Part shown: in pieces, positions 14,608 to 50,804 of the stretch
Numbering within the stretch: position 1 is the first letter of the stretch
How the letters are laid out: each line of letters opens with the position of its first letter
Assembly (NCBI GenBank): GCA_946530475.1
Contig: CAMNAC010000001.1
Location: forward strand, 1-52,905
Source: an uncultured Mycoplasmatota bacterium
GTDB taxonomy: Bacteria > Bacillota_I > Bacilli_A > RF39 > UBA660
Reading direction: 5' to 3'
DNA length: 52,905 nucleotides
Notes under the pieces: generated by a model
Seen by the model: the letters and a program-made list of their open reading frames with translations, nothing else
What the model was told of the DNA's origin: nothing
Databases searched by the model: none
Program-made: the position numbers and the translations under genes

Positions 14608-16198
14608 ATTTTTTTGTTACTTTGAAAATTACTTGATACATATTTTCTAAATCAAATTCATCTGTATCTACTTCATAACCTAACTGTTTTAAGTTTTCTG
14701 CACAAGCTCTAATTGCATCAAGTGCTTGTGTCATATTATTTGTTTGAGGAGCAGTATTAGGCACTGCTACAGTTGGTTCTGGAATCGAAGCTTCCATAGT
14801 TGGTTGTGAAACTGGTGCTGGTTCATTATCTAAATTTTCTAGAAAACTATAATCTGGTGTAGTTACAGGTCCAGTTGGCATTTGAGGTTGTGGTGCTTGT
14901 GGAAGTGATAAATCCAAATCCAATGGTTGCTCTGGTTCTTCTACAACTGCTTCTGTTGGCACTGTTGGTGCAGCAGGTGTTCCAACAACTGGTTCTGTAG
15001 GTACTGCTGGTGTCACAGGTTCTGATACAACTGGTGCAGCTGGAGTTACATCTGGCAATGAACTAATTGGCGCTGGTTCCAATACAGGAGCTTCTTGAAC
15101 TGGAGCTGGAGCAATTGGTTGCGCATTAAACCCATCTGCAACTGGAGAAGGCTCTAAATTTGGAATTTGTGGTTTTTCAGCTACATTTAATACATCAAAG
15201 AATTTTCCAGGAGTTACTTCAGGTGCTGCTGGTTGTGGTTGTGCTTCCACTGGAGCAGGTGCTGGAGCAATTCCGGATGGATTTAATAAATTGTTCACAT
15301 CTACAGAAGGTTTTGGCTCAAAAATATTGGTTGCATTTTGTTCAATTTGATTAATATCCATAAAACCAGGATTTACACTTGGTTCTTCATGTACCTCATC
15401 AATAATTGGAGATACTGGGATATTTACATTTTGATCATTCATTTTTGGTTCCTCCTTTTCATCTAAATCTAATACTTCTAATGGTTCTGAAACTTCTGGA
15501 ATAATAGGTGTTGCTTCTTTTACTTCAGGCATTACGGAAACTGGTTCAGGTACCTTATTTTCAACAGGTTTCTCTTCTATTGTCTCTTTATTTGTTCCAT
15601 TTAGTATTTTATTAATTTCTTCATCCGTTTTTCTTACTGTTAAACGTTTTTCTATAATCTTCTTCAATAATTCTCTTTGATCTTTTTGACTTAATTTTAA
15701 TAAAGAACGAGCATGTCTTTCTGATATTTTTTCATTTAACAAGGCTTCTTGTACATCATCATCTAGATTTAGCAAGCGAAGTTTATTTGCAACTGTAGAT
15801 TGATCTTTCCCTAATTTATCAGCCAATTGATTTTGGGTTAAATAGCCCATATCTAATATTTTCTTATAAGATACTGCTTCTTCAATTGGAGTTAAATCTT
15901 GTCTTTGTACGTTTTCAATCAATGCAATTTCTGCGCTATCTTTATCATCTAAGTTTGCAACTAATGCAGGTATTGTCTTCATACCAGCTAACACACTTGC
16001 TTTATAACGACGTTCTCCTGCTATAATTTCATATTTGTCTGCAATTGGTCTTACGACAATTGGTTGAATAACTCCATGTTCTTTAATAGATTCTGACAAC
16101 TCATTAATTGCATCTTCATCAAAACGAATTCTTGGTTGAAAACGGTTAGGTAAGATATCATCTAAATTTAATTCAATTACTTTTTTTTCTTCTTTCAT
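14606..16198 (-). CDS. noc: ParB/Noc family protein with a Noc-type HTH, a long Pro/Ala/Val-rich insertion and a Noc-like C-terminal domain (530 aa)
   Basis: The N-terminal domain contains LPNRFQPRIRF...HGVIQPIVVR...AGERRYKA (the GERR CTP-binding box). The HTH reads LTQNQLADKLGKDQSTVANKLRLLNL...ISERHARSL, close to B. subtilis Noc (GKGQSTIANKLRLLKLP...ITERHARAL) as I recall it. The C-terminus ALDAIRACAENLKQLGYEVDTDEFDLENMYQVIFKVTKK resembles the Noc C-terminal domain. The gene lies directly downstream of rsmG, the canonical noc position. Confidence 0.8.
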   Translation of the reverse strand: MKEEKKVIELNLDDILPNRFQPRIRFDEDAINELSESIKEHGVIQPIVVRPIADKYEIIAGERRYKASVLAGMKTIPALVANLDDKDSAEIALIENVQRQDLTPIEEAVSYKKILDMGYLTQNQLADKLGKDQSTVANKLRLLNLDDDVQEALLNEKISERHARSLLKLSQKDQRELLKKIIEKRLTVRKTDEEINKILNGTNKETIEEKPVENKVPEPVSVMPEVKEATPIIPEVSEPLEVLDLDEKEEPKMNDQNVNIPVSPIIDEVHEEPSVNPGFMDINQIEQNATNIFEPKPSVDVNNLLNPSGIAPAPAPVEAQPQPAAPEVTPGKFFDVLNVAEKPQIPNLEPSPVADGFNAQPIAPAPVQEAPVLEPAPISSLPDVTPAAPVVSEPVTPAVPTEPVVGTPAAPTVPTEAVVEEPEQPLDLDLSLPQAPQPQMPTGPVTTPDYSFLENLDNEPAPVSQPTMEASIPEPTVAVPNTAPQTNNMTQALDAIRACAENLKQLGYEVDTDEFDLENMYQVIFKVTKK

Positions 16199-16296
16199 TG
16201 TACTTCCCTTCCTATTCTTAAAATAATCATACTATATTTTGGGAAATAAAACAATGATTTTTTGGGAAATAATTATATTTTTTATTTTTTTATTTT

Positions 16297-16324
16297 AAAA
16301 AGCCTTTATTATAAAGGCTTTTTC
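16297..16324 (-). terminator. Terminator hairpin overlapping the rsmG stop codon
   Basis: The stem AAAGCCTTTAT / ATAAAGGCTTT is followed by a T-run on the minus strand. It separates rsmG from the noc-like gene. Confidence 0.55.
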
Positions 16325-17013
16325 TTAATTTCTGAATATTTTCTAGGATACTTTAAAGATGTTTTTTCTTGTTTTTTTATCACTAAAATGGTTCTGTTAG
16401 ATTGTTCTTTTGGTAGCAAAAAAGAAATTTCTTTTTCTAAATATCCATGAAGAATTTCCATCGCTTTTTTGCTTTCTTCTAATTCTTGGGAAATATTTCC
16501 TTTTAAAGGAATAAAATACTTATTAATCTTAACTAATGGCATACAGTATTCCATTAATATAGAGAGTGGGGCAACAGCCCTTGCGGTTACCACATCGAAA
16601 GATTCCCTATGCTCTTTCGCAAAGTCTTCAGCTCTAGCATGATAGGTTTTTATTTTTTTTAATTCTAGTTTTTGAATGACTTCATCTAAAAATGTAATTC
16701 TTTTTTGTAAAGAATCAACTAATGATATCTGCATATCTGGAAATAAAATCTTTAATACAATTCCAGGGAAACCAGCACCTGTTCCTACATCACATAGTGT
16801 TGTTACTTCATGAAAATCAATTGCTTTTAGAATTGTCGCACTATCATAAAAATGTTTTAAATAAACTTGACTTTCTTCTGTAATTCCAGTTAAATTCATT
16901 TTTTGGTTCCATTCCACTAATAATTCATAATACATATGAAATTGTTTTCTTTGAAGTTCTGACAATTCAATTCCAAGTATACTCAATTCTTTTATAAATT
17001 CATGTTCTGTCAT
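16309..17013 (-). CDS. rsmG: 16S rRNA (guanine527-N7)-methyltransferase RsmG (GidB)
   Basis: The SAM-binding motif [15 protein letters not shown] is present. The mnmG-rsmG synteny holds, with a 4-nt overlap with mnmG. Confidence 0.93.
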
Positions 17014-18872
17014 TTTGATACCTTCTTTAAATAAAACATCAAAATAGAAATGTCTGCAGGATTTACGCCTGATATTCTTATTGCTTGTCCAATAGAAGTA
17101 GGGTGTACTTCTTTTAATTTTTGTTTTGCCTCACTTGCTAAATTATGAATCTGATCAAAATCAATATTTTCTGGAATCTTCTTTTCTTCTAATTCTAACA
17201 TTTTAGCAGCTTCTTTATTTGCTTTTTTAATATATCCTTCATATTTATCTTGAATTTCTACTTGTTCTTTTACTTCATCTAAATAATCAAGTTTTATAAA
17301 GTGTTCAATATGTTCCATATGAATTTCTGGTCTTTTTAATAATTCATATAATGTCATTCCATCTTTAATTAATGAAGTTCCTATTTGTTCTAAATAATCT
17401 AGCGTAGATTTAATTGGGGTAATTTTATTATCTTTTAATACTTGTTTTAACTCTTCAATTTGTTTTTTCTTTTCCAATAATCTTTGATACCTTTTTTCAT
17501 CAATTAATCCTACTTTATAGCCATATTCTCTTAGTCTTAAGTCTGCATTATCATGTCTTAATAATAAACGGTATTCTGCTCTTGATGTAAGTAGACGGTA
17601 AGGATCTCTTACTCCTTTTGTGATAAGATCATCTATTAGGACTCCGATATATGATTCATTTCTTTTTAAAATCAAAGGTTCTTTCTTTTCAAGAGATAAA
17701 GCTGCATTGATTCCAGCAATTAACCCTTGTCCAGCTGCTTCCTCATAACCACTTGTTCCATTGATTTGACCTGCTAAAAATAAACCTTTTATTTTTTTTG
17801 TTTCCAAAGAGTTTTTTAATTCTGTTGGATAGACTGCGTCATATTCAATCGCATAGGCATATTTTAGTATTTTTGCATGCTCTAAACCTGGTAAACTATG
17901 AACCATTTGATCTTGTACATCATGTGGCATACTAGTGGAAAAACCTTGTAAATAAATATCATTATAATAAAGGCTCTCTGGTTCTAAAAATAATTGATGT
18001 CTTTCTTTATCTGCAAATCTTACAATTTTATCTTCGATGGAAGGACAATATCTTGGTCCTACACCAGTAACATCTGATAATCCACCATACATACTTGCTT
18101 TATTTAAATTATCTCTTATTATTTTATGAGTTTCTGGTGTTGTATAAATTAAATGACATGGAACTTGATCTTCTATTTTGTACCTTGGAGGATAATCAAA
18201 ACTAAAAGTTCTATAAACAGAATCACCTTTTTCAATTGAAGTTTTACTATAATCAATAGAATCTTTATCAATTCTTTGTGGGGTTCCCGTTTTTAAACGA
18301 ATAATCTGAAGACCTAATTCCTTTAGATGGTCACTTAAATGCATACTTGGTCTTTCTCCATGTGGTCCCTGTCTTTTTCTCTCACTTCCAACCATAATAT
18401 CTGCTTTTAAATAAGTTCCAGTTGTTAAAATCACACGTGAACCAAATATTTTTGTTCCATCTTCTAAAACGATTCCTTTTACTGTTTGATCTTCTACTAT
18501 TAAATTTTCTACCATACCTTCTTGAATAGTTAAATTTTTTTGATTCTTTAACGTTTTTAACATTTCTTTTGGATATGTTATTTTATCTGCTTGTGCACGA
18601 AGGGCTTGAACTGCTGGTCCTTTTTTATAATTTAACATTTTTATTTGGATGTGGGATTTATCCGCGTTATTTCCCATTTCTCCACCTAGTGCATCAATTT
18701 CTCTTACTACAATACCTTTCGCACTTCCTCCAATAGAAGGATTACAAGGCATGTCTGCTATATTCTTTATATTTCCCGTGATTAGTAGGGTAGAATGTCC
18801 TTTTCTAGCACATGCTAAAGATGCTTCACAACCTGCATGACCACCACCTACTACAATGATTTCATAATTCAT
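17010..18872 (-). CDS. mnmG: tRNA uridine 5-carboxymethylaminomethyl modification enzyme MnmG (GidA)
   Basis: The FAD-binding N-terminus is [15 protein letters not shown]. The track ORF starts at a GTG (18887); the ATG at 18872 ([11 protein letters not shown]) is preferred. Confidence 0.95.
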
Positions 18873-18987
18873 ATATCCACCACCCACTTAAACGAAATTA
18901 TTATACTATCTTTTTTTTTTAATGACAACAAAATTCGGGAAATAATTTCATAGAATGCGATATAATATAGTTATAAAGGAGAAGATT

Positions 18988-19461
18988 ATGGAAAGAATTA
19001 ATACATTTAGTGTTGAAATCATTCAAAATCGTGAAAATAAAGAATTATCTTATGGTGGATCTTATTACGGACCAATTGGCAAATTTGTAGGTTCTGTGAT
19101 GGATTCTAATCAGGATACGTTTTTAATATTTAAAAATTCAGATGATCAATATTTTATGATGCAAGCTGTAATTGATATGACTGTTATATTATCAAAAAAT
19201 GGTCCTTTTGTTTATGAAACAATCATAGTAAATGAACAGAAAGAAGAAGTGAAAAAAGAACTTTTATTCAGTCTATTGGAAAATGGTACAATTGATATTT
19301 CTTTAGGACTTAAGCAACATAACAATACAGTTTTTGTTGCAAAAGAAGAAGTTTTTTGTATGTTAAATGATCTTAAAAAACAATATCCAAATGATTCTTT
19401 AAACACTTGTTTAAAACTTCTAGATACAGAAAAAAAATTAGTCAAAAAACAAAAAGCCTAA
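18988..19461 (+). CDS. Hypothetical protein (157 aa from the preferred ATG)
   Basis: The track ORF starts at 18955. The ATG at 18988 follows an AAGGAG RBS. No motif is recognised. A terminator at 19451-19472 overlaps the stop. Confidence 0.5.
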   Translation: MERINTFSVEIIQNRENKELSYGGSYYGPIGKFVGSVMDSNQDTFLIFKNSDDQYFMMQAVIDMTVILSKNGPFVYETIIVNEQKEEVKKELLFSLLENGTIDISLGLKQHNNTVFVAKEEVFCMLNDLKKQYPNDSLNTCLKLLDTEKKLVKKQKA

Positions 19462-19472
19462 AAGGCTTTTTT
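19451..19472. terminator. Bidirectional terminator between convergent genes
   Basis: The stem AAAAAGCC / GGCTTTTTT has loop TAAAA. Confidence 0.6.
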
Positions 19473-19480
19473 ATTGTAAT

Positions 19481-19496
19481 TATTTCCCGGGAAATA
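19481..19496. promoter_or_regulatory. Perfect Noc-binding-site (NBS) palindrome TATTTCCCGGGAAATA
   Basis: The 16-bp perfect palindrome contains the published 14-bp NBS consensus ATTTCCCGGGAAAT. It lies between convergent genes. Confidence 0.6.
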
Positions 19497-19498
19497 AT

Positions 19499-20854
19499 TT
19501 ATTTTCCAAGACAGAATCTGCTAAATAATTGATCTAGAAGTTCTTCATCATAGGTTTCTCCAATAATTTCACCAAGTAAATTCCAGATATTTCTTAAATC
19601 TATTTCAACCATATCAATTGGAATATTTTTTTGAATTGCTTTCTTTACTTCTTTCAAAGATTCGTAACTTTTTTTCAATAAGGAAATACTTCTTGCATTC
19701 GATAAATAAGTAAAATCTTTCATTTCAATTTGTTCTAATTCAAATAATTTTCTTATTTTTTCTTTTAATTCTTCTAATCCTTTATGATTTTTTATACTCA
19801 TCCATACTATTTTATTGGAATCAAACTGATCAATTTGAAGATTCTGTTTTAAATCTGTTTTATTGATTAGTATTAAATAATTTTTATTCTTAATTTGATG
19901 AAGTAATTCTATCTCTTCTTTTGTAATTTTTTCATTGTTATTTAAAACAAATAAAATTAAATCTGATTTATCAATTAAATTTAAACTTTTTTGTACACCA
20001 ATTTTTTCTACTAAATCTTCTGTTTTACGGATACCTGCTGTATCAATAATATGAAGAGGAATTCCGTCTAATACAAAGTTTCCTTCTATAATATCTCGAG
20101 TTGTACCTGGTATATTCGTAACAATCGCTTTTTCTTCCTCTAATAATTCATTTAAAATACTACTTTTTCCTACATTTGGCTTTCCAATTATTAAAGTTTG
20201 AATCCCATTTTTAATCATTTTTCCAGTTTGACTTTCTTGAAGTATTTTCTTCATATCAAGTTCTAATTCTTCTATTTTGGGAAGAATTTTTTCATTGGTT
20301 AATACTTCAATATCATCATATTCTGGAAAATCAATATTTACTTCAATATTTGTTAATATTTCTACTACTTTTTCTCTTAAAGAATGAATTAAATCAGATG
20401 TTTTTCCACTTAATTCATTCATTGCAAGTTTTCTTCTTGTTTCCGTATCTGCTTCTATTACATCCATGATTCCTTCTACATTCATTAAATCAATTCGCCC
20501 GTTTAAGAATGCTCTTTGAGTAAACTCACCTTGTTTTGCCAGACGTGCTCCTTTTTGTAATACCAATTCTAATACTCTTTTTGTTGTTGCATATCCTCCA
20601 TGAGTATTGATTTCAACAATATCTTCCATAGTATATGTTTTAGGAGCTTTCATTACACTTACCAGTACTTCATCAATTACTTCGTTTTCCTCTACTATAT
20701 GACCATAATGAATGGTATGACTAGACACTTGTTCTAAATCTTTTCCTTTAAATATTTGATTAACTATTGAAATTGCTTCTTTTCCGCTTACTCGAACAAT
20801 GGATATTGCTCCTACTCCAGATGCCGTTGAGATAGCTGCAATTGTATCATTCAT
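19499..20854 (-). CDS. mnmE: tRNA modification GTPase MnmE (TrmE)
   Basis: The N-terminus TIAAISTASGVGAISIVRVSG, the G1 motif GKPNVGKSS and the C-terminal CLGK motif are present. Confidence 0.95.
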   Translation of the reverse strand: MNDTIAAISTASGVGAISIVRVSGKEAISIVNQIFKGKDLEQVSSHTIHYGHIVEENEVIDEVLVSVMKAPKTYTMEDIVEINTHGGYATTKRVLELVLQKGARLAKQGEFTQRAFLNGRIDLMNVEGIMDVIEADTETRRKLAMNELSGKTSDLIHSLREKVVEILTNIEVNIDFPEYDDIEVLTNEKILPKIEELELDMKKILQESQTGKMIKNGIQTLIIGKPNVGKSSILNELLEEEKAIVTNIPGTTRDIIEGNFVLDGIPLHIIDTAGIRKTEDLVEKIGVQKSLNLIDKSDLILFVLNNNEKITKEEIELLHQIKNKNYLILINKTDLKQNLQIDQFDSNKIVWMSIKNHKGLEELKEKIRKLFELEQIEMKDFTYLSNARSISLLKKSYESLKEVKKAIQKNIPIDMVEIDLRNIWNLLGEIIGETYDEELLDQLFSRFCLGK

Positions 20855-23668: not shown

Positions 23669-23936
23669 TTTTTCCACTTTTTTGTGGAAAATTTTGTGTA
23701 TATTTTTTTTCTCCACATTTTTACTTGTTAATAAATTTATAGTTTTATTTTATTCCACATACTTTTCTACATATTTATTTCTTATTTTTTCTATTTATTC
23801 GACAATTTTCAACAAATTTGTGGAAAATGAAATCACAGCCTTTTTCCTATGTTTATAATTTTCTCCACAAAAATATGGAAAACTTATTTTTTTTATGACT
23901 TTCTTGTCTTTTTTCTGTGGGAAATATTGTGGATAA
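23669..23936. other. oriC part 1: DnaA-box cluster upstream of dnaA
   Basis: The plus-strand boxes are TTTTCCAC at 23669, TGTGGAAAA at 23683-23691 and TTCTCCACA at 23709-23717. Further boxes are TATTCCACA at 23751-23759, TGTGGAAAA at 23819-23827 and TTCTCCACA at 23861-23869. The last two are TGTGGGAAA at 23916-23924 and a perfect consensus TGTGGATAA at 23928-23936. An AT-rich tract follows, up to the dnaA RBS. Confidence 0.8.
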
Positions 23937-24026
23937 TTTTTTTTGTTCTTTTTTAATATTTTTTCTTTGCTTTTTCATAAAAATATTGTACAATAATGGT
24001 AAATTTTACAAAGTGAGGTGTTTAGG

Positions 24027-25376
24027 ATGAGCAATGATGAATTGTGGACTAGTTTTTTAGCAAAAATGAAAGACTCATTAAATGCAATGGCCTATGACAC
24101 CTGGTTTTCTGAAACAAAACTTTTAGAGATAAAAGGAAATGTCGCGAAAATCATTGTTCCAATGAATGTTCATAAAAAACATTTAAAAGAAAATTATAGT
24201 TCTTTCATGGAAGAAACCTATACCAATTTAACTGGTGAAAACGTTCACTTTGAATACTATACAGAAGATGAAATTGAAGATACAATTCAAATCCCTGTGG
24301 AAAAAGAATACCAATCAAAACCTAATATGGAAACCAATTTAAATCCACAATATACTTTTGATAATTTTATAGTAGGAGTCAGTAATAAATTTGCGAAAGC
24401 TACTTCTTTAGCAGTCGCTGAAAAGCCTGGATTCATGTACAATCCTTTATTTATCTATGGAAATAGTGGACTTGGTAAAACTCATTTGATGCATGCAATA
24501 GGAAATTACATTGTAACACATAGTGAAAAAAGAGTTTTATATGTTACCTGTGAAAAATTTGTTTCTGATTTTATAGGAATTAGTAAAAAAAATAAAGATG
24601 GAAATAATTATGATAGTGTGGAAATCTTTAAAAAGAAATACCGTGACATTGATGTATTAATGATTGATGATATTCAGTACTTAGGAAATGCTTATCAAAC
24701 ACAACAAGAGTTTTTTAATACTTTTAATGATTTATATGGGAACAATAAACAAATTATTATTTCCTCAGACCGATCTCCAGATGATTTAAAACTATTAGAA
24801 GATCGTTTAAGAACGAGATTTAATTGGGGACTTACAATCGATATTTTACCTCCTGACTTTCAACTTCGCATGGATATTATTGATAAAAAAATAGAAAGTC
24901 AAGTGATGGGAAGTTCTTTCCCAAAAGAAGTAAAAGAATATATCGCAAGTAATTGTACGACTGATATTAGAAAACTGGAAGGTGCAATTACAAGGGTATT
25001 TGCTTATGCTACCATGATGAGTGGATCTGATATTACGTTGGATTTGGCTGTAGAAGCATTAAAAGATTACTTTGTAAAAAGCATTGTTTCAAAGAATAAG
25101 ATTGAACAAGTTCAACAATTAGTCGCTAATCATTATAATATTACAGTTGAAGATTTAAAGAGTAAAAAAAGAATGGCAAAAATAGGGGTTCCACGACAAA
25201 TAGCAATGTATATTTGTAGAACTGTTTTAGAAGAATCTTTACCAAAGATAGGAATTGAATTTGGTGGAAAAGATCATACAACTGTAATGCATTCTGTTGA
25301 TAAAATAAAAAGGGAAATTAAAACAAATCAAATATTAGAAATGGAAATTCAAAAAATAATAAATCAGATTAAATAG
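24027..25376 (+). CDS. dnaA: Chromosomal replication initiator protein DnaA
   Basis: The track ORF starts at GTG 24018. The ATG at 24027 (MSNDELW) lies 6 nt after a GAGGTG RBS. The Walker A motif GNSGLGKTHL and the C-terminal DnaA signature GGKDHTTVMH are present. Confidence 0.97.
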   Translation: MSNDELWTSFLAKMKDSLNAMAYDTWFSETKLLEIKGNVAKIIVPMNVHKKHLKENYSSFMEETYTNLTGENVHFEYYTEDEIEDTIQIPVEKEYQSKPNMETNLNPQYTFDNFIVGVSNKFAKATSLAVAEKPGFMYNPLFIYGNSGLGKTHLMHAIGNYIVTHSEKRVLYVTCEKFVSDFIGISKKNKDGNNYDSVEIFKKKYRDIDVLMIDDIQYLGNAYQTQQEFFNTFNDLYGNNKQIIISSDRSPDDLKLLEDRLRTRFNWGLTIDILPPDFQLRMDIIDKKIESQVMGSSFPKEVKEYIASNCTTDIRKLEGAITRVFAYATMMSGSDITLDLAVEALKDYFVKSIVSKNKIEQVQQLVANHYNITVEDLKSKKRMAKIGVPRQIAMYICRTVLEESLPKIGIEFGGKDHTTVMHSVDKIKREIKTNQILEMEIQKIINQIK

Positions 25377-32859: not shown

Positions 32860-32946
32860 ATTGTCTGGGAAATAAACAAAATGCTAACGAATTAATTTTG
32901 GGAAATATTTTATATATAACATTGTATTTAGTTATTAAATTAGCGT

Positions 32947-33064
32947 ATGTTTCACGTGGAACTATGAAATTTTGTTGTTATGTTCCACGTGAAACTATAA
33001 AAGTATATCACTATGTTCCACGTGAAACTATAAAAGTATATCACTATGTTCCACGTGAAACTAT
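32947..33064. repeat. parS-like site cluster A: 4 copies at exact 33-bp spacing
   Basis: The 19-mers ATGTTYCACGTGRAACTAT lie at 32947-32965 (T/G variant), 32980-32998, 33013-33031 and 33046-33064. The inner 16-mer TGTTCCACGTGAAACT matches the parS consensus TGTTNCACGTGAAACA at 15/16 positions. Copies 2-4 sit in a perfect 33-bp tandem repeat, TATGTTCCACGTGAAACTATAAAAGTATATCAC. Confidence 0.8.
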
Positions 33065-33258
33065 GATTTAACGAATTTAATGTCTATATAAAATTGTAAT
33101 TATATTTGATATTATAATTATTGAGCAAAGCGCATAAATCCTTATTTTATAATGCTTTTATGTACTTACTTATATAATAGCACAACATAATTTAAGATAT
33201 TTTTATCTTAAATAATAAATCAAATTAAATATGCAATCTAATTAGAAATTAATATTTA

Positions 33259-33407
33259 ATGTTCCACGTGAAACTATAATAAACTGAACAATGTTCCACG
33301 TGAAACTATGAAATAATAAGACTATGTTCCACGTGAAACTATATCGCACTGAACAATGTTTCACGTGAAACTATGAAATAATAAGACTATGTTTCACGTG
33401 AAACTAT
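33259..33407. repeat. parS-like site cluster B: 5 copies at alternating 32/33-bp spacing
   Basis: The same 19-mer lies at 33259-33277, 33291-33309, 33324-33342, 33356-33374 and 33389-33407. The last two copies are the perfectly palindromic GTTTCACGTGAAAC variant. Copies 6-9 lie in a 65-bp tandem duplication. Confidence 0.8.
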
Positions 33408-33500: not shown

Positions 33501-33520
33501 AATATTTCCCGGGAAATATT
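33501..33520. promoter_or_regulatory. Perfect 20-bp palindrome containing an NBS (AATATTTCCCGGGAAATATT)
   Basis: The core TATTTCCCGGGAAATA lies at 33503-33518 and is identical to the copies at 19481 and 41100. Confidence 0.65.
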
Positions 33521-33565
33521 TGAAAACTATTGATTTTGTTTAAAAAATAGTGTATTTTATTAATT

Positions 33566-33640
33566 GACACAACATTTATGTATGAACCAGGTCAGAGTTG
33601 GAAGACAGCAGCCTTAAATACCTCTAAGTGTGTGTGTCAT
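33566..33640 (+). ncRNA. ffs: Small (4.5S-type) signal recognition particle RNA
   Basis: AACCAGGTCAGAGTTGGAAGACAGCAGCC matches the conserved domain IV of E. coli 4.5S RNA (ACCAGGUCAGGUCCGGAAGGAAGCAGCC), including the GGAA tetraloop. The 5' arm GACACAACATTTA pairs with the 3' arm TAAGTGTGTGTGTC to form one long hairpin, which is followed by a T-run. A possible promoter is TTGATT (33530) -17 nt- TATTTT (33553). The ends are approximate. Confidence 0.65.
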
Positions 33641-33657
33641 TTTTTTATGGTGATGTT

Positions 33658-34101
33658 ATGAATAAGTATATGGAAGAAGCTTTGAATGAGGCATATAAAT
33701 CCTTTAAAAAAGGTGATGTTCCAGTTGGAGCAGTGATTGTTAAAAATGGAAAGATAATTGCAAGAGCATATAATAAAAAAGAAAAAAAACAAGTCGCTAC
33801 GAAACATGCCGAAATAATTGCAATTGAAAAGGCCTGTAAGAAATTACACAATTGGCATTTGGATGGATGCGAATTATATGTAACTTTAGAACCTTGCTTG
33901 ATGTGTGCTGGAGCAATTATACAGAGTCGAATTTCAAAATTAGTATATGCGACTTCAAATGAAAAATTTGGCTTTGTTGAAAGCATAGATCATGTATTAG
34001 ATAATAAAAAAAATAATCATCATGTGGAAATCATTAAAGGAATTTGCGAAAAAGAAAGCCAAAAATTGTTAAAGAATTTTTTTAAAAATAAGAGAAGTTA
34101 A
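33658..34101 (+). CDS. tadA: tRNA-specific adenosine deaminase TadA
   Basis: The track ORF starts at GTG 33628, inside the SRP RNA. The ATG at 33658 (MNKYMEEALNEA) follows a GGTGA RBS. The CDA zinc motifs HAEIIAI and PCLMCAGA are present. Confidence 0.9.
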   Translation: MNKYMEEALNEAYKSFKKGDVPVGAVIVKNGKIIARAYNKKEKKQVATKHAEIIAIEKACKKLHNWHLDGCELYVTLEPCLMCAGAIIQSRISKLVYATSNEKFGFVESIDHVLDNKKNNHHVEIIKGICEKESQKLLKNFFKNKRS

Positions 34102-40470: not shown

Positions 40471-40530
40471 GACAACAAAACGTTGTCTTTTCTATTCAAA
40501 AAAAAGTATAATAAGAATGGGAGTGATCGT

Positions 40531-41373
40531 ATGTCACAAAAAAGTTATGACAATAGTCCTACTGTATATCTAATACCAACTCCAATTGGAAATATGGATG
40601 ATATGACTTTTAGAGCTGTAAAAATATTACAAGAAGTGGAAGTTATTTTTTCTGAGGATACAAGAGTTACAAATTTGTTATTAAAACACTTTGATATCCA
40701 TAAAAAATGTATTTCGAGCCATAAATTCAACGAAGAAAAAAATCATGAAAAACTTCTTTCTTATTTAGAAAAAGGCTTTCATGTTGGAGTTGTAAGTGAT
40801 AGGGGAACCCCTGTTATCAGCGATCCAGGTTATGAACTAGCAAAATATGCGATTGATAAAGGATATAATGTAGTAGGGTTACCAGGCGCAACAGCTTTAA
40901 TTCCCGCACTTATTATGTCTGGGATTTCTCCACAACCTTTCTTATTTTATGGATTCTTAAATAATAAGGATGGAAAAAGAAAGAAAGAATTAGAAAGTTT
41001 AAAAGAAGAAAAAGCAACTCTTATTTTTTATGAAGCACCTCATCGTTTAGAAAAAACATTGCTTTTGATGAAAGAAGTATTGGGAAATCGTAAGATAAGT
41101 ATTTCCCGGGAAATAAGTAAAAAGTTTGAAGAAGTTTATAGAGGAACTTTTGAAGAAGTTTTAAAAGAAGTAAAAGATGCAAAAGGAGAATTTGTAATTG
41201 TGGTAAGTGGAAATACAGATGAATCTTCTTTTGAACATTTATCTATTATTGAACATGTAAATTCATATTTAAAAGAAGGATATACAAAAAAAGAAGCATA
41301 TAAAAAGGTTGCTTCTGATAGGGGTATCAGTAAAAATGAAGTTTATCAAACATATGAAAGGGGGATTTTATGA
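40531..41373 (+). CDS. rsmI: 16S rRNA (cytidine1402-2'-O)-methyltransferase RsmI
   Basis: The track ORF starts at 40483. The ATG at 40531 follows a GGGAG RBS. LYLIPTPIGNMDDMTFRA, SDRGTPVISDPG and FYEAPHR are present. Confidence 0.9.
   Translation: MSQKSYDNSPTVYLIPTPIGNMDDMTFRAVKILQEVEVIFSEDTRVTNLLLKHFDIHKKCISSHKFNEEKNHEKLLSYLEKGFHVGVVSDRGTPVISDPGYELAKYAIDKGYNVVGLPGATALIPALIMSGISPQPFLFYGFLNNKDGKRKKELESLKEEKATLIFYEAPHRLEKTLLLMKEVLGNRKISISREISKKFEEVYRGTFEEVLKEVKDAKGEFVIVVSGNTDESSFEHLSIIEHVNSYLKEGYTKKEAYKKVASDRGISKNEVYQTYERGIL
41100..41115. promoter_or_regulatory. Perfect NBS palindrome TATTTCCCGGGAAATA inside the rsmI coding sequence
   Basis: The 16-mer is identical to the copies at 19481 and 33503 and encodes ...SISREIS... 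Confidence 0.55.
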
Positions 41374-49001: not shown

Positions 49002-49223
49002 AGTTTAAAAGTTTTGATGGAGAGGGAAAGAAGAATTTCTTTTAAAAGAGAATCTATGGTTGGTGAAAATAGATAAGAAAGCTTTTTTCAAATGGCTCTT
49101 GAACTGATTTACCGATAGGTAGGTAGATACGTAATTCTGCGTTAAAGATTTAAGGTGTATCTGGGATACATAAATTAAGGTGGTACCACGTAAACTACGT
49201 CCTTATCGGATGTGGTTTTTTTA
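49002..49223 (+). promoter_or_regulatory. T-box leader (Met-specific candidate) with terminator, upstream of metG
   Basis: An extended -10 (TGTTATACT) lies at 48987-48995. An AGAGA box and a GGTGAAA distal-loop motif are present. The candidate AUG specifier is at 49092-49094 (CAAAUGG), just 5' of the Stem I closing strand. The T-box sequence AATTAAGGTGGTACCACG lies at 49174-49190. The terminator stem ACGTCC/GGATGT (49197-49213) is followed by a T-run. Confidence 0.8.
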
Positions 49224-49238
49224 TTTAGGAGGGATAAT

Positions 49239-50804
49239 ATGAAAGAAAAATACTATATTTCCACTGCGATTGCTTATACATCAGGGAAACCACATATTGG
49301 AAATACTTATGAAATTGTTCTTGCAGATGCGATTGCTCGATACAAACGTTTTTTAGGGTATGATGTTTATTTCCAAACAGGAACTGATGAACATGGGGAA
49401 AAAATTGAATTAAAGGCAAAAGCACAAGGAAAAGAGCCACAAGAATTTGTTGATGAAATCGCATTAGAAGTAAGAAGAATTTGGGATACGATGAATACAA
49501 GCTATGATAAGTTTGTAAGAACAACTGCACCATCTCATATGGAAGAAGTTGCGAAAATCTTTAAGCGATTATATGATCAAGGGGATATTTATAAAGGAAA
49601 ATACGAAGGTTTATATTGTACTCCATGTGAATCTTTCTTTACCGAAAGTCAATTAGTAGATGGAAAATGTCCAGATTGCGGAAGAGAAGTTCATGTCGCA
49701 TCAGAAGAAGCATATTTCTTTAAACTTGAAAAATATGCGAAAAGATTAGAAGAATATATCGAAACACACCCAGATTTTATTCAACCTGAATCAAGAAAAA
49801 ATGAAATTATTAATAACTTTATTAAGCCTGGTTTACAAGATTTATGTGTATCTCGTACTTCTTTTGACTGGGGTATACCAGTATCATTTGATGAAAAACA
49901 TGTTGTCTATGTTTGGATCGATGCATTAAGTAACTATATTACCTTCTTAGGTTACCATACTGAAGAGGAATCTGAAGAAGATTTTAAAAAGTATTGGCCT
50001 GCAGATTTGCATCTAATTGGAAAAGATATTTTAAGATTTCATACAATTTACTGGCCAATTATGTTAATGGCATTGGATTTACCTTTACCAAAACAAATCT
50101 TTGGACATCCTTGGGTATTGATTGGAACAGATAAGATGAGTAAATCCAAAGGAAACATCATCTATGCAGATGATTTAGTAAATCTATTTGGGGTAGATGC
50201 GGTAAGATATTATTTATTACATGAAATTCCATTTGCATCGGATGGAACGATTACATATGAATTACTAATTGAACGAATCAATTCTGATTTAGCGAATATC
50301 TTAGGAAATTTAGTCAATCGTACTATCAGCATGAGTCATAAATACTTTGATGGAGTTGTATTAGAACCAAAAGAAGAAGAGAAAATTGATCAAGAATTAA
50401 AATCTTTAGTTTTAGATACAACAGAAAAAGTAAATCAAAAAATGGATCGTCTTCGTATAGCAGACGCTATCGACGATATTTTTGAAATCTTTAGAAGATG
50501 TAATAAATACATTGATGAAACAACTCCTTGGGCACTTGCAAAAGAGGAATCAAAAAAAGAAAGATTACAAACTGTCTTATATAACTTATTAGAATCTATT
50601 CGTCATGGAGCTGTTTTGTTACAATCTTTTTTACCAGAGACTGCAGATTCTATTTTTCATCAATTAAATACGGAAAATAGATATTATGAATCTTTATCTA
50701 ACTTTAATGGATTGGATTATGGAATTCATTTAAATAAGCCAGAACCATTATTTATACGTATTGATAAAGAAAAAAAATTAAAAGAAATTGAAGAAAGTGA
50801 ATAA
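49239..50804 (+). CDS. metG: Methionine--tRNA ligase (short form, no C-terminal tRNA-binding appendix)
   Basis: The preferred start MKEKYYISTAIAYTSGKPHIGN (HIGH motif) follows an AGGAGG RBS. A zinc knuckle (CTPCESF...CPDCG) and the KMSKS motif are present. Confidence 0.95.
   Translation: MKEKYYISTAIAYTSGKPHIGNTYEIVLADAIARYKRFLGYDVYFQTGTDEHGEKIELKAKAQGKEPQEFVDEIALEVRRIWDTMNTSYDKFVRTTAPSHMEEVAKIFKRLYDQGDIYKGKYEGLYCTPCESFFTESQLVDGKCPDCGREVHVASEEAYFFKLEKYAKRLEEYIETHPDFIQPESRKNEIINNFIKPGLQDLCVSRTSFDWGIPVSFDEKHVVYVWIDALSNYITFLGYHTEEESEEDFKKYWPADLHLIGKDILRFHTIYWPIMLMALDLPLPKQIFGHPWVLIGTDKMSKSKGNIIYADDLVNLFGVDAVRYYLLHEIPFASDGTITYELLIERINSDLANILGNLVNRTISMSHKYFDGVVLEPKEEEKIDQELKSLVLDTTEKVNQKMDRLRIADAIDDIFEIFRRCNKYIDETTPWALAKEESKKERLQTVLYNLLESIRHGAVLLQSFLPETADSIFHQLNTENRYYESLSNFNGLDYGIHLNKPEPLFIRIDKEKKLKEIEESE

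Follow-up and report, generated by a model that had tools for sequence, protein, structure and literature searches.

A probable Noc-NBS system confined, like parS, to the replication origin and served by an atypical Noc in an uncultured Mycoplasmatota bacterium

Noc is the textbook case of a ParB duplicate that has come to recognise another DNA sequence and to do a new job across the whole chromosome. The window analysed here, a stretch of 52,905 nucleotides from an uncultured Mycoplasmatota bacterium that makes up contig C1 of its assembly (903,860 bp in 64 contigs, 78% complete, 29.9% GC), carries three exact copies of the 16-bp perfect palindrome TATTTCCCGGGAAATA and a gene for a Noc-like ParB paralogue. 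The locus raises the question of what so small a set of sites could be for: are they Noc-binding sites (NBS) of the familiar dispersed kind, a centromere in another form, or sites that have nothing to do with Noc? We consider it probable that the palindromes are genuine NBS serving as loading sites for the noc-like CTP clamp, that they are confined to the origin, and that the role of the system is most likely specific to the origin domain.

The palindrome is, letter for letter, the NBS core of the published 22-bp oligonucleotide GGATATTTCCCGGGAAATATCC, the duplex with which Noc was crystallised and CTP assays were run, which bears out its initial identification as the published NBS. All three 16-mers are present where they were first annotated (Table 1), and not one of 100 dinucleotide-preserving shuffles of the window contains a match to the exact 16-mer. 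A search of the window with the 14-mer core that allowed up to two mismatches returned the same three sites and no more, against an expectation of 0.27. A larger repeat element behind the three palindromes, which had been raised as the alternative to a functional system, is ruled out, the three flanks being unrelated to one another beyond the 16 bp.

Table 1. Positions of the binding sites, their putative reader and neighbouring landmarks in the window.
Feature	Positions	Strand	Remarks
noc-like gene, 530 aa	14606..16198	-	ParB_N (4e-34) and HTH_ParB; Pro-rich linker; C-terminal domain possibly Noc-like
Three half-sites, GGGAAATA	16241..16495	.	at 16241, 16264 and 16488; noc promoter region and 3' end of rsmG
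Three half-sites	18668..18944	.	at 18668, 18770 and 18937; 5' end of mnmG and upstream region
NBS copy 1	19481..19496	.	non-coding; flanked by the terminator (19451-19471) and the mnmE stop codon
Half-site	23919..23926	+	abuts DnaA-box-like TTGTGGATAA, just upstream of dnaA
dnaA ORF	24018..25376	+	origin marker; GC skew changes sign at ~24 kb
Two half-sites	32867..32907	+	at 32867 and 32900; past the gyrA stop codon, ahead of the parS array
parS-like tandem array, 9 sites	32948..33405	.	TGTT[C/T]CACGTG[A/G]AACT; ~33-bp period; blocks of 4 and 5
NBS copy 2	33503..33518	.	intergenic; 98 bp past the last parS repeat, 38 bp before the SRP RNA gene
rsmI	40483..41373	+	TP_methylase family; host gene of NBS copy 3
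NBS copy 3	41100..41115	.	within rsmI; I-S-R-E-I, with rare codons TCC and CGG

The three copies sit in quite different surroundings. Copy 1 is free of coding constraint, as was originally supposed: the neighbouring hairpin scores as a terminator on both strands, and the mnmE ORF (19499-20854) ends with its stop codon at 19499. Copy 2 occupies the gyrA-tadA spacer, the most conserved position class among relatives, and copy 3 fills a position in rsmI that is also filled in 11 other genomes, the protein here reading S-I-S-R-E-I-S around the site. A TTGAAA hexamer that abuts copy 2 (33519-33556) is a candidate -35 element for the promoter of the SRP RNA gene, and Noc loading at this copy might affect transcription of that gene or of tadA. 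The SRP RNA gene itself (33556-33651), an Rfam match of 59 bits, runs into the 5' end of tadA when that ORF is taken to start at its GTG (33628-34101), and the real tadA start is probably downstream of that GTG. Further along the window, a T-box leader (49005-49207, 118 bits) lies upstream of another 530-aa ORF (49212-50804).

The copy inside rsmI speaks to the level at which selection operates. In this genome CGG is the rarest Arg codon, at 0.4%, and TCC accounts for 8.4% of Ser codons; the peptide I-S-R-E would be written ATT TCC CGG GAA with a probability of 2e-4. When rsmI was aligned from 30 genomes, every gene that contains the NBS (9/9) was found to use ATT TCC CGG GAA ATA, and two relatives that have no internal site, G025 and G017, encode the identical ISREIS peptide by way of ATA TCT AGA GAA ATx. 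Since the same peptide is written in common codons where the NBS is missing, selection acts on the DNA. The sites found in dnaX, mfd and rsmG are likewise nearly always read as I-S-R-E-I, with one dnaX gene holding two copies, and the coding sequence appears to accommodate the site. Chance or a by-product of coding is ruled out by the shuffles, the codon usage and the same-peptide comparison in rsmI, and the suggestion that these sites are under selection, first made from the window by itself, gains from the rare codons and from conservation in relatives. In G017, an NBS (C27:87336-87349) lies 11 bp upstream of the start of rsmI (87360-88187) and the internal site has been lost, which suggests compensatory turnover of NBS within the region.

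The protein encoded at the locus has the residues expected of a cognate reader. Its gene lies directly downstream of rsmG (16309-17013) in the origin region, 3 kb from an NBS and apart from the canonical parB, and among solved structures the protein matches the Noc of Geobacillus (207 bits) and of B. subtilis (183 bits) better than the Spo0J of B. subtilis (165 bits). The recognition region, GKDQSTVANKLRLLNL...SERHAR, places Q, K, N and R at specificity positions 173, 179, 184 and 201, where Noc has Q, K, K and R and ParB has R at the first and G at the last. Specificity for NBS has been assigned to Q173, K179, K184 and R201 (Jalal 2020), and the asparagine at position 184 is the one departure, Noc proteins almost always having lysine there. 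In published mutagenesis, Q173 and R201 switched specificity and one lysine, at either 179 or 184, was enough, so the deviation at 184 is compatible with NBS specificity. The same Q-K-N-R pattern recurs in 8 homologue sequences and in the consensus of all 80. Both CTP-binding boxes are intact, GERR within IIAGERRYKAS and ENxQR within ALIENVQRQDL. The Noc-type protein that the initial annotation placed at this gene is therefore well described as a ParB paralogue with NBS-type specificity residues.

In other respects the protein is an unusual Noc. Against the NCBIfam model TIGR04285 (nucleoid_noc) it scores 289.9 bits, short of the 315-bit cut-off but more than the genome's own ParB (246.6 bits), the match covering positions 1-215 of the 255 in the profile. 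The amphipathic membrane helix that forms residues 1-10 of B. subtilis Noc, and that is needed there for nucleoid occlusion, is absent from its N-terminus, where NRFQPR follows from residue 18 and only ~10 open codons lie upstream; it is likewise absent across the lineage homologues. Membrane tethering would thus need another element. The middle of the protein is a disordered, Pro-rich linker of ~290 aa in which NPGFMDI and PGKFF stand out as conserved islands. In class-level relatives, Noc proteins of canonical length carry N-terminal FNIF/FNIL-type motifs, presumed to be a membrane-targeting sequence, and these motifs resemble the linker island GKFFNMF. That the GKFF-type motif may be a relocated membrane motif is a lead that we draw from this resemblance rather than a result. 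A 42-bp tandem repeat (2.4 copies, 14934-15035) lies inside the part of the gene that encodes the linker, so the linker may grow by repeat expansion; the long-Noc homologues range from ~400 to 730 aa in length. At the other end of the protein, the last 60 aa found no match by BLAST among the C-termini of canonical Noc proteins, and a profile of the C-terminal domain built from the lineage gave, in a tiny database, weak matches to canonical Noc C-termini at the correct position and none to those of ParB, which hints at a Noc-like C-terminal domain.

The distribution of the sites is where the system parts company with the Noc-NBS systems studied so far. The initial annotation had pictured an NBS complement as dense as that of B. 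subtilis or denser, and had proposed a genome-wide search. That search, at up to two mismatches in the whole 903,860-bp assembly, found no NBS beyond the three window copies, although one or two extra sites could exist in this genome because the assembly is 78% complete. All three lie less than 17 kb from dnaA, at distances of 4.5, 8.1 and 15.7 kb. By comparison, B. subtilis has ~70 NBS per 4.2 Mb, spread over most of the chromosome (PMC4331003), and S. aureus has 41 in the origin-proximal half (PMC4331003, PMC5540599). The claim of a density above that of B. subtilis is thus correct for the window but not for the genome, in which three sites in 0.9 Mb amount to ~1 per 300 kb, fewer than in B. 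subtilis. Three sites in 904 kb, all of them origin-proximal, do not make a dispersed set, and simple arithmetic puts the probability that three independent sites would all fall in contig C1 (5.9% of the assembly) at ~2e-4. The CCCGGG hexamer occurs four times in the assembly, and three of the four occurrences are inside NBS.

Half-sites (GGGAAATA/TATTTCCC) follow the same geography. Outside the full sites, 12 of the 29 in the assembly are in C1, all at 16.2-33 kb, an enrichment around oriC of ~7-fold (binomial p=3e-8, with C1 as 5.9% of the assembly), and eight control words of the same composition as the half-site occur only 0-1 times each in C1. Table 1 lists those in the noc promoter region, at mnmG, next to dnaA and beside the parS array.

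Relatives reproduce this arrangement. The long-Noc homologues belong to a lineage that we take to be RF39-type, made up of uncultured gut or rumen Bacilli or 'Tenericutes' MAGs such as Ca. Fimihabitans and Ca. Pelethosoma, and a literature search found no publications linking RF39 with Noc or ParB in such an arrangement. The exact 14-mer is present in 1-5 copies in 21 of 24 same-family genomes of ~1 Mb each, and in 1 of 16 genomes outside the family. Wherever an NBS shares a contig with noc it lies 0.3-25 kb from that gene, with no counter-example. A circular relative of 1.256 Mb has a single NBS at up to one mismatch, in dnaX near gyrA; five further long-contig relatives have 1-3 NBS each, all on the noc contig; and exact sites, 1-3 per genome, are confined to the origin in the complete relative and in those that are 94-98% complete (5-10 contigs). 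A B. subtilis-like dispersal with a gap at the terminus, as was anticipated at the outset, therefore gives way to a layout like that of parS, in the complete and near-complete relatives as in this genome.

To place the sites among genes, 40 relative regions were fetched and their genes named by BLAST against the window ORFs. The exact NBS number 58 in 27 genomes, with 57 of them inside the oriC gene block (noc, rsmG through mnmG, mnmE, jag, dnaA, gyrA, tadA, dnaX, rsmI and mfd): 26 in the gyrA-tadA(-dnaX) spacer, 11 inside rsmI, 8 inside dnaX, 4 in the jag/mnmE spacer and 8 elsewhere in the block, with a single site, in G045, outside it. The outer T...A of the 16-mer is kept in 55 of the 58. 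Two genomes without a long Noc-type paralogue, G023 and G025, also lack an exact NBS, G023 having only a canonical-type ParB; in G009, noc is present and NBS are found only with one mismatch. Among relatives with a canonical-length Noc, the same search found 23 NBS-like sites on ~20 contigs in G028, compared with 2 for a control pattern, and sites around the 2.4-Mb chromosome of G038 that become fewer near the presumed terminus. Hidden dispersed sites, sought at up to three mismatches in this genome and up to two in relatives, can be set aside: none turned up away from the origin in the family, and the canonical-Noc relatives do have dispersed matches.

Two further observations concern rsmI. 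G037, a class-level relative from a different family that has only canonical-length ParB paralogues, carries one NBS (C21:38565-38578) at the same rsmI codon position, so the rsmI site may predate the long-linker Noc lineage. Within the family, rsmI went undetected in 11 of 24 genomes. These 11 include five of the eight genomes that have an NBS inside dnaX, a pattern suggestive of two sub-clades that differ in their coding-embedded sites.

The genome also has a canonical centromere system. Contig C13 encodes an adjoining ParA (261 aa) and ParB (296 aa), a canonical pair, and this ParB has an LGRGLESL N-terminus containing the LGRGL ParA-interaction motif, R173 and G201, and a typical C-terminal domain. 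The parS-like array of the window lies between gyrA and the SRP RNA gene, is the only such cluster in the assembly, and would provide the loading sites for the C13 ParB. With a parA-parB pair on C13 and a parS array in the window, the possibility that the noc-like protein is a lone dual-purpose ParB is ruled out. The two kinds of site are distinct as well, NBS differing from parS at two diagnostic positions per half-site. On the protein side, the noc-like product has Q173 and R201 and is without an LGRGL-type ParA-interaction peptide, and it is only the layout of its sites that is centromere-like. In relatives, that layout brings the two kinds of site very close together. For the NBS of the spacer, the median distance to the closest parS is 46 bp (35 exact and one-mismatch sites with a parS in the fetched region). 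In G004 (L101, G004:C24 3930-4107) a 66-bp tandem unit holds one NBS and one parS, 27 bp apart, and in G010 (L108, G010:C3 3780-4700) NBS and parS alternate in units of ~115 bp.

Such closeness raises the possibility, which we entertain but rather doubt, that the noc-like clamp is a second centromere protein that co-loads with ParB on composite parS/NBS arrays and aids the segregation or organisation of the origin, for example by forming condensates through its long disordered linker or by recruiting partners, and that it has no role in nucleoid occlusion. Tentatively, then, the RF39-type Noc could be a second origin/centromere clamp, its NBS interleaved with parS and two paralogous CTP clamps sharing one centromere domain. 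The 46-bp median over 35 spacer sites and the composite units of G004 and G010 would be natural under such an arrangement, as would the missing N-terminal membrane helix and a complement of 1-5 sites per genome, which is typical of a centromere. The arrangement fits less well with a protein that has no LGRGL-type ParA-interaction peptide, with the many sites (in rsmI, in dnaX and near mnmE) that lie kilobases from parS, and with a linker that keeps a motif resembling the N-terminal FNIF/FNIL segment of canonical-length Noc; FtsZ, moreover, is found in all 26 genomes, so that a role linked to division can still be envisaged. Were the noc-like protein nevertheless such a second clamp, the lineage may have preserved or re-created an intermediate between a centromere ParB and a chromosome-wide occlusion factor, and NBS would have arisen from duplicated parS by two substitutions per half-site.

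Other readings fare considerably worse. It is very unlikely, in our estimation, that this is ordinary chromosome-wide occlusion of the B. subtilis type whose other NBS fell in the unassembled 22% or are too degenerate to be recognized. The assembly is indeed only 78% complete, and literature cited in PMC4331003 counts imperfect matches among the B. subtilis sites. Yet the other 851 kb contain no site at up to two mismatches, where chance alone predicts a few, the complete and 94-98% complete relatives have 1-3 exact sites that are all at the origin, and the same search does recover dispersed sites in relatives with a canonical Noc. We give scarcely any credence to the idea that the palindrome is the target of some other HTH regulator or of a SmaI/XmaI-type restriction-modification system, or that it is a by-product of coding, even though the CCCGGG core is a classical restriction site and copy 3 and many orthologous sites fall in coding sequence. 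Conservation extends over all 16 bp, beyond the 6-bp core, with the outer T...A kept in 55 of 58 sites; avoidance of restriction would deplete such sites, whereas these are kept at orthologous positions around the origin; where the NBS is absent, common codons spell the same peptide; and the presence of NBS tracks that of the Noc-type paralogue, G023 and G025 being without both.

For the origin-domain reading that we favour, the sequences themselves show NBS, unique to this contig of the assembly, together with a matching Noc-type reader and selection on the DNA that holds the sites at the origin; we infer that Noc binds its sites, spreads from them and has its cellular role there. The noc-like ParB paralogue would nucleate and load at the three NBS as a CTP-dependent clamp, and its loading would be confined, with the full sites and the dozen half-sites, to within ~20 kb of oriC on each side. 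NBS in this lineage often adjoin or interleave with the parS centromere sites, and Noc would be expected to coat only the origin/centromere domain, together with ParB. S. aureus Noc covers 8-10 kb per site, and spreading to that extent would coat ~14-46 kb of the window, taking in oriC, dnaA, the parS array and noc. What such a coat might do could take several forms. It may keep the division machinery away from origins that have yet to segregate, a division-linked role being possible given that all 26 genomes tested for FtsZ have it. It may tether the origin, possibly through the conserved GKFF-type linker motif, or it may restrain initiation, as reported for S. aureus Noc. The NBS-free zone of S. 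aureus is larger than that of B. subtilis, and its Noc also restrains initiation; by analogy, an origin-only layout in a ~1-Mb genome could represent the extreme of that trend.

The lineage thus combines a new specificity with an old, centromere-like layout, and the canonical membrane anchor is absent. This combination makes it possible to test the order in which site dispersal, membrane binding and the specificity switch followed the duplication, to ask whether a Noc can work purely on the origin domain, be it in division timing, origin tethering or initiation control, and to examine how a pair of paralogous sliding clamps can share a stretch of only a few hundred base pairs. The lineage also offers a clean case of a DNA-binding site retained within essential genes through the rarest synonymous codons.

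Among known systems, the closest are the Noc-NBS systems of B. subtilis and S. aureus, which share with the present one an identical 16-bp site, a reader that is a ParB paralogue encoded downstream of rsmG and next to oriC, and, in that reader, Q173, R201, a permissive K179, the CTP-binding boxes and, it would seem, a Noc-like C-terminal domain. Unlike them, the lineage described here has only 1-5 sites, ~25 kb or less from noc and oriC, and its protein lacks the N-terminal helix, has a linker of ~290 aa inserted, carries N184 rather than K and scores below the TIGR04285 cut-off; the membrane helix, the dispersed sites and the curated score are the three Noc features that it does not show. With ParABS it has in common a few origin-clustered sites, sometimes in tandem arrays, at which a ParB-family sliding clamp that depends on CTP is predicted to load, and in relatives NBS and parS occur within one repeat unit. 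It differs from ParABS in that the sequence is NBS and not parS, that the reader has Q/R rather than R/G at positions 173/201 and no ParA-stimulating N-terminal peptide, and that a separate canonical ParA/ParB/parS set coexists with it. The SlmA-SBS system of E. coli, in which a TetR-family protein with dispersed sites acts directly on FtsZ, offers a more distant parallel: there too, a DNA-binding protein connected with division is placed with respect to the origin and terminus by specific sites in the DNA, but the protein family is unrelated, the sites are dispersed, and nothing in the present system points to direct action on FtsZ. The system resembles Noc-NBS in its site, its reader and its predicted clamp chemistry, and parS in the number and placement of its sites.
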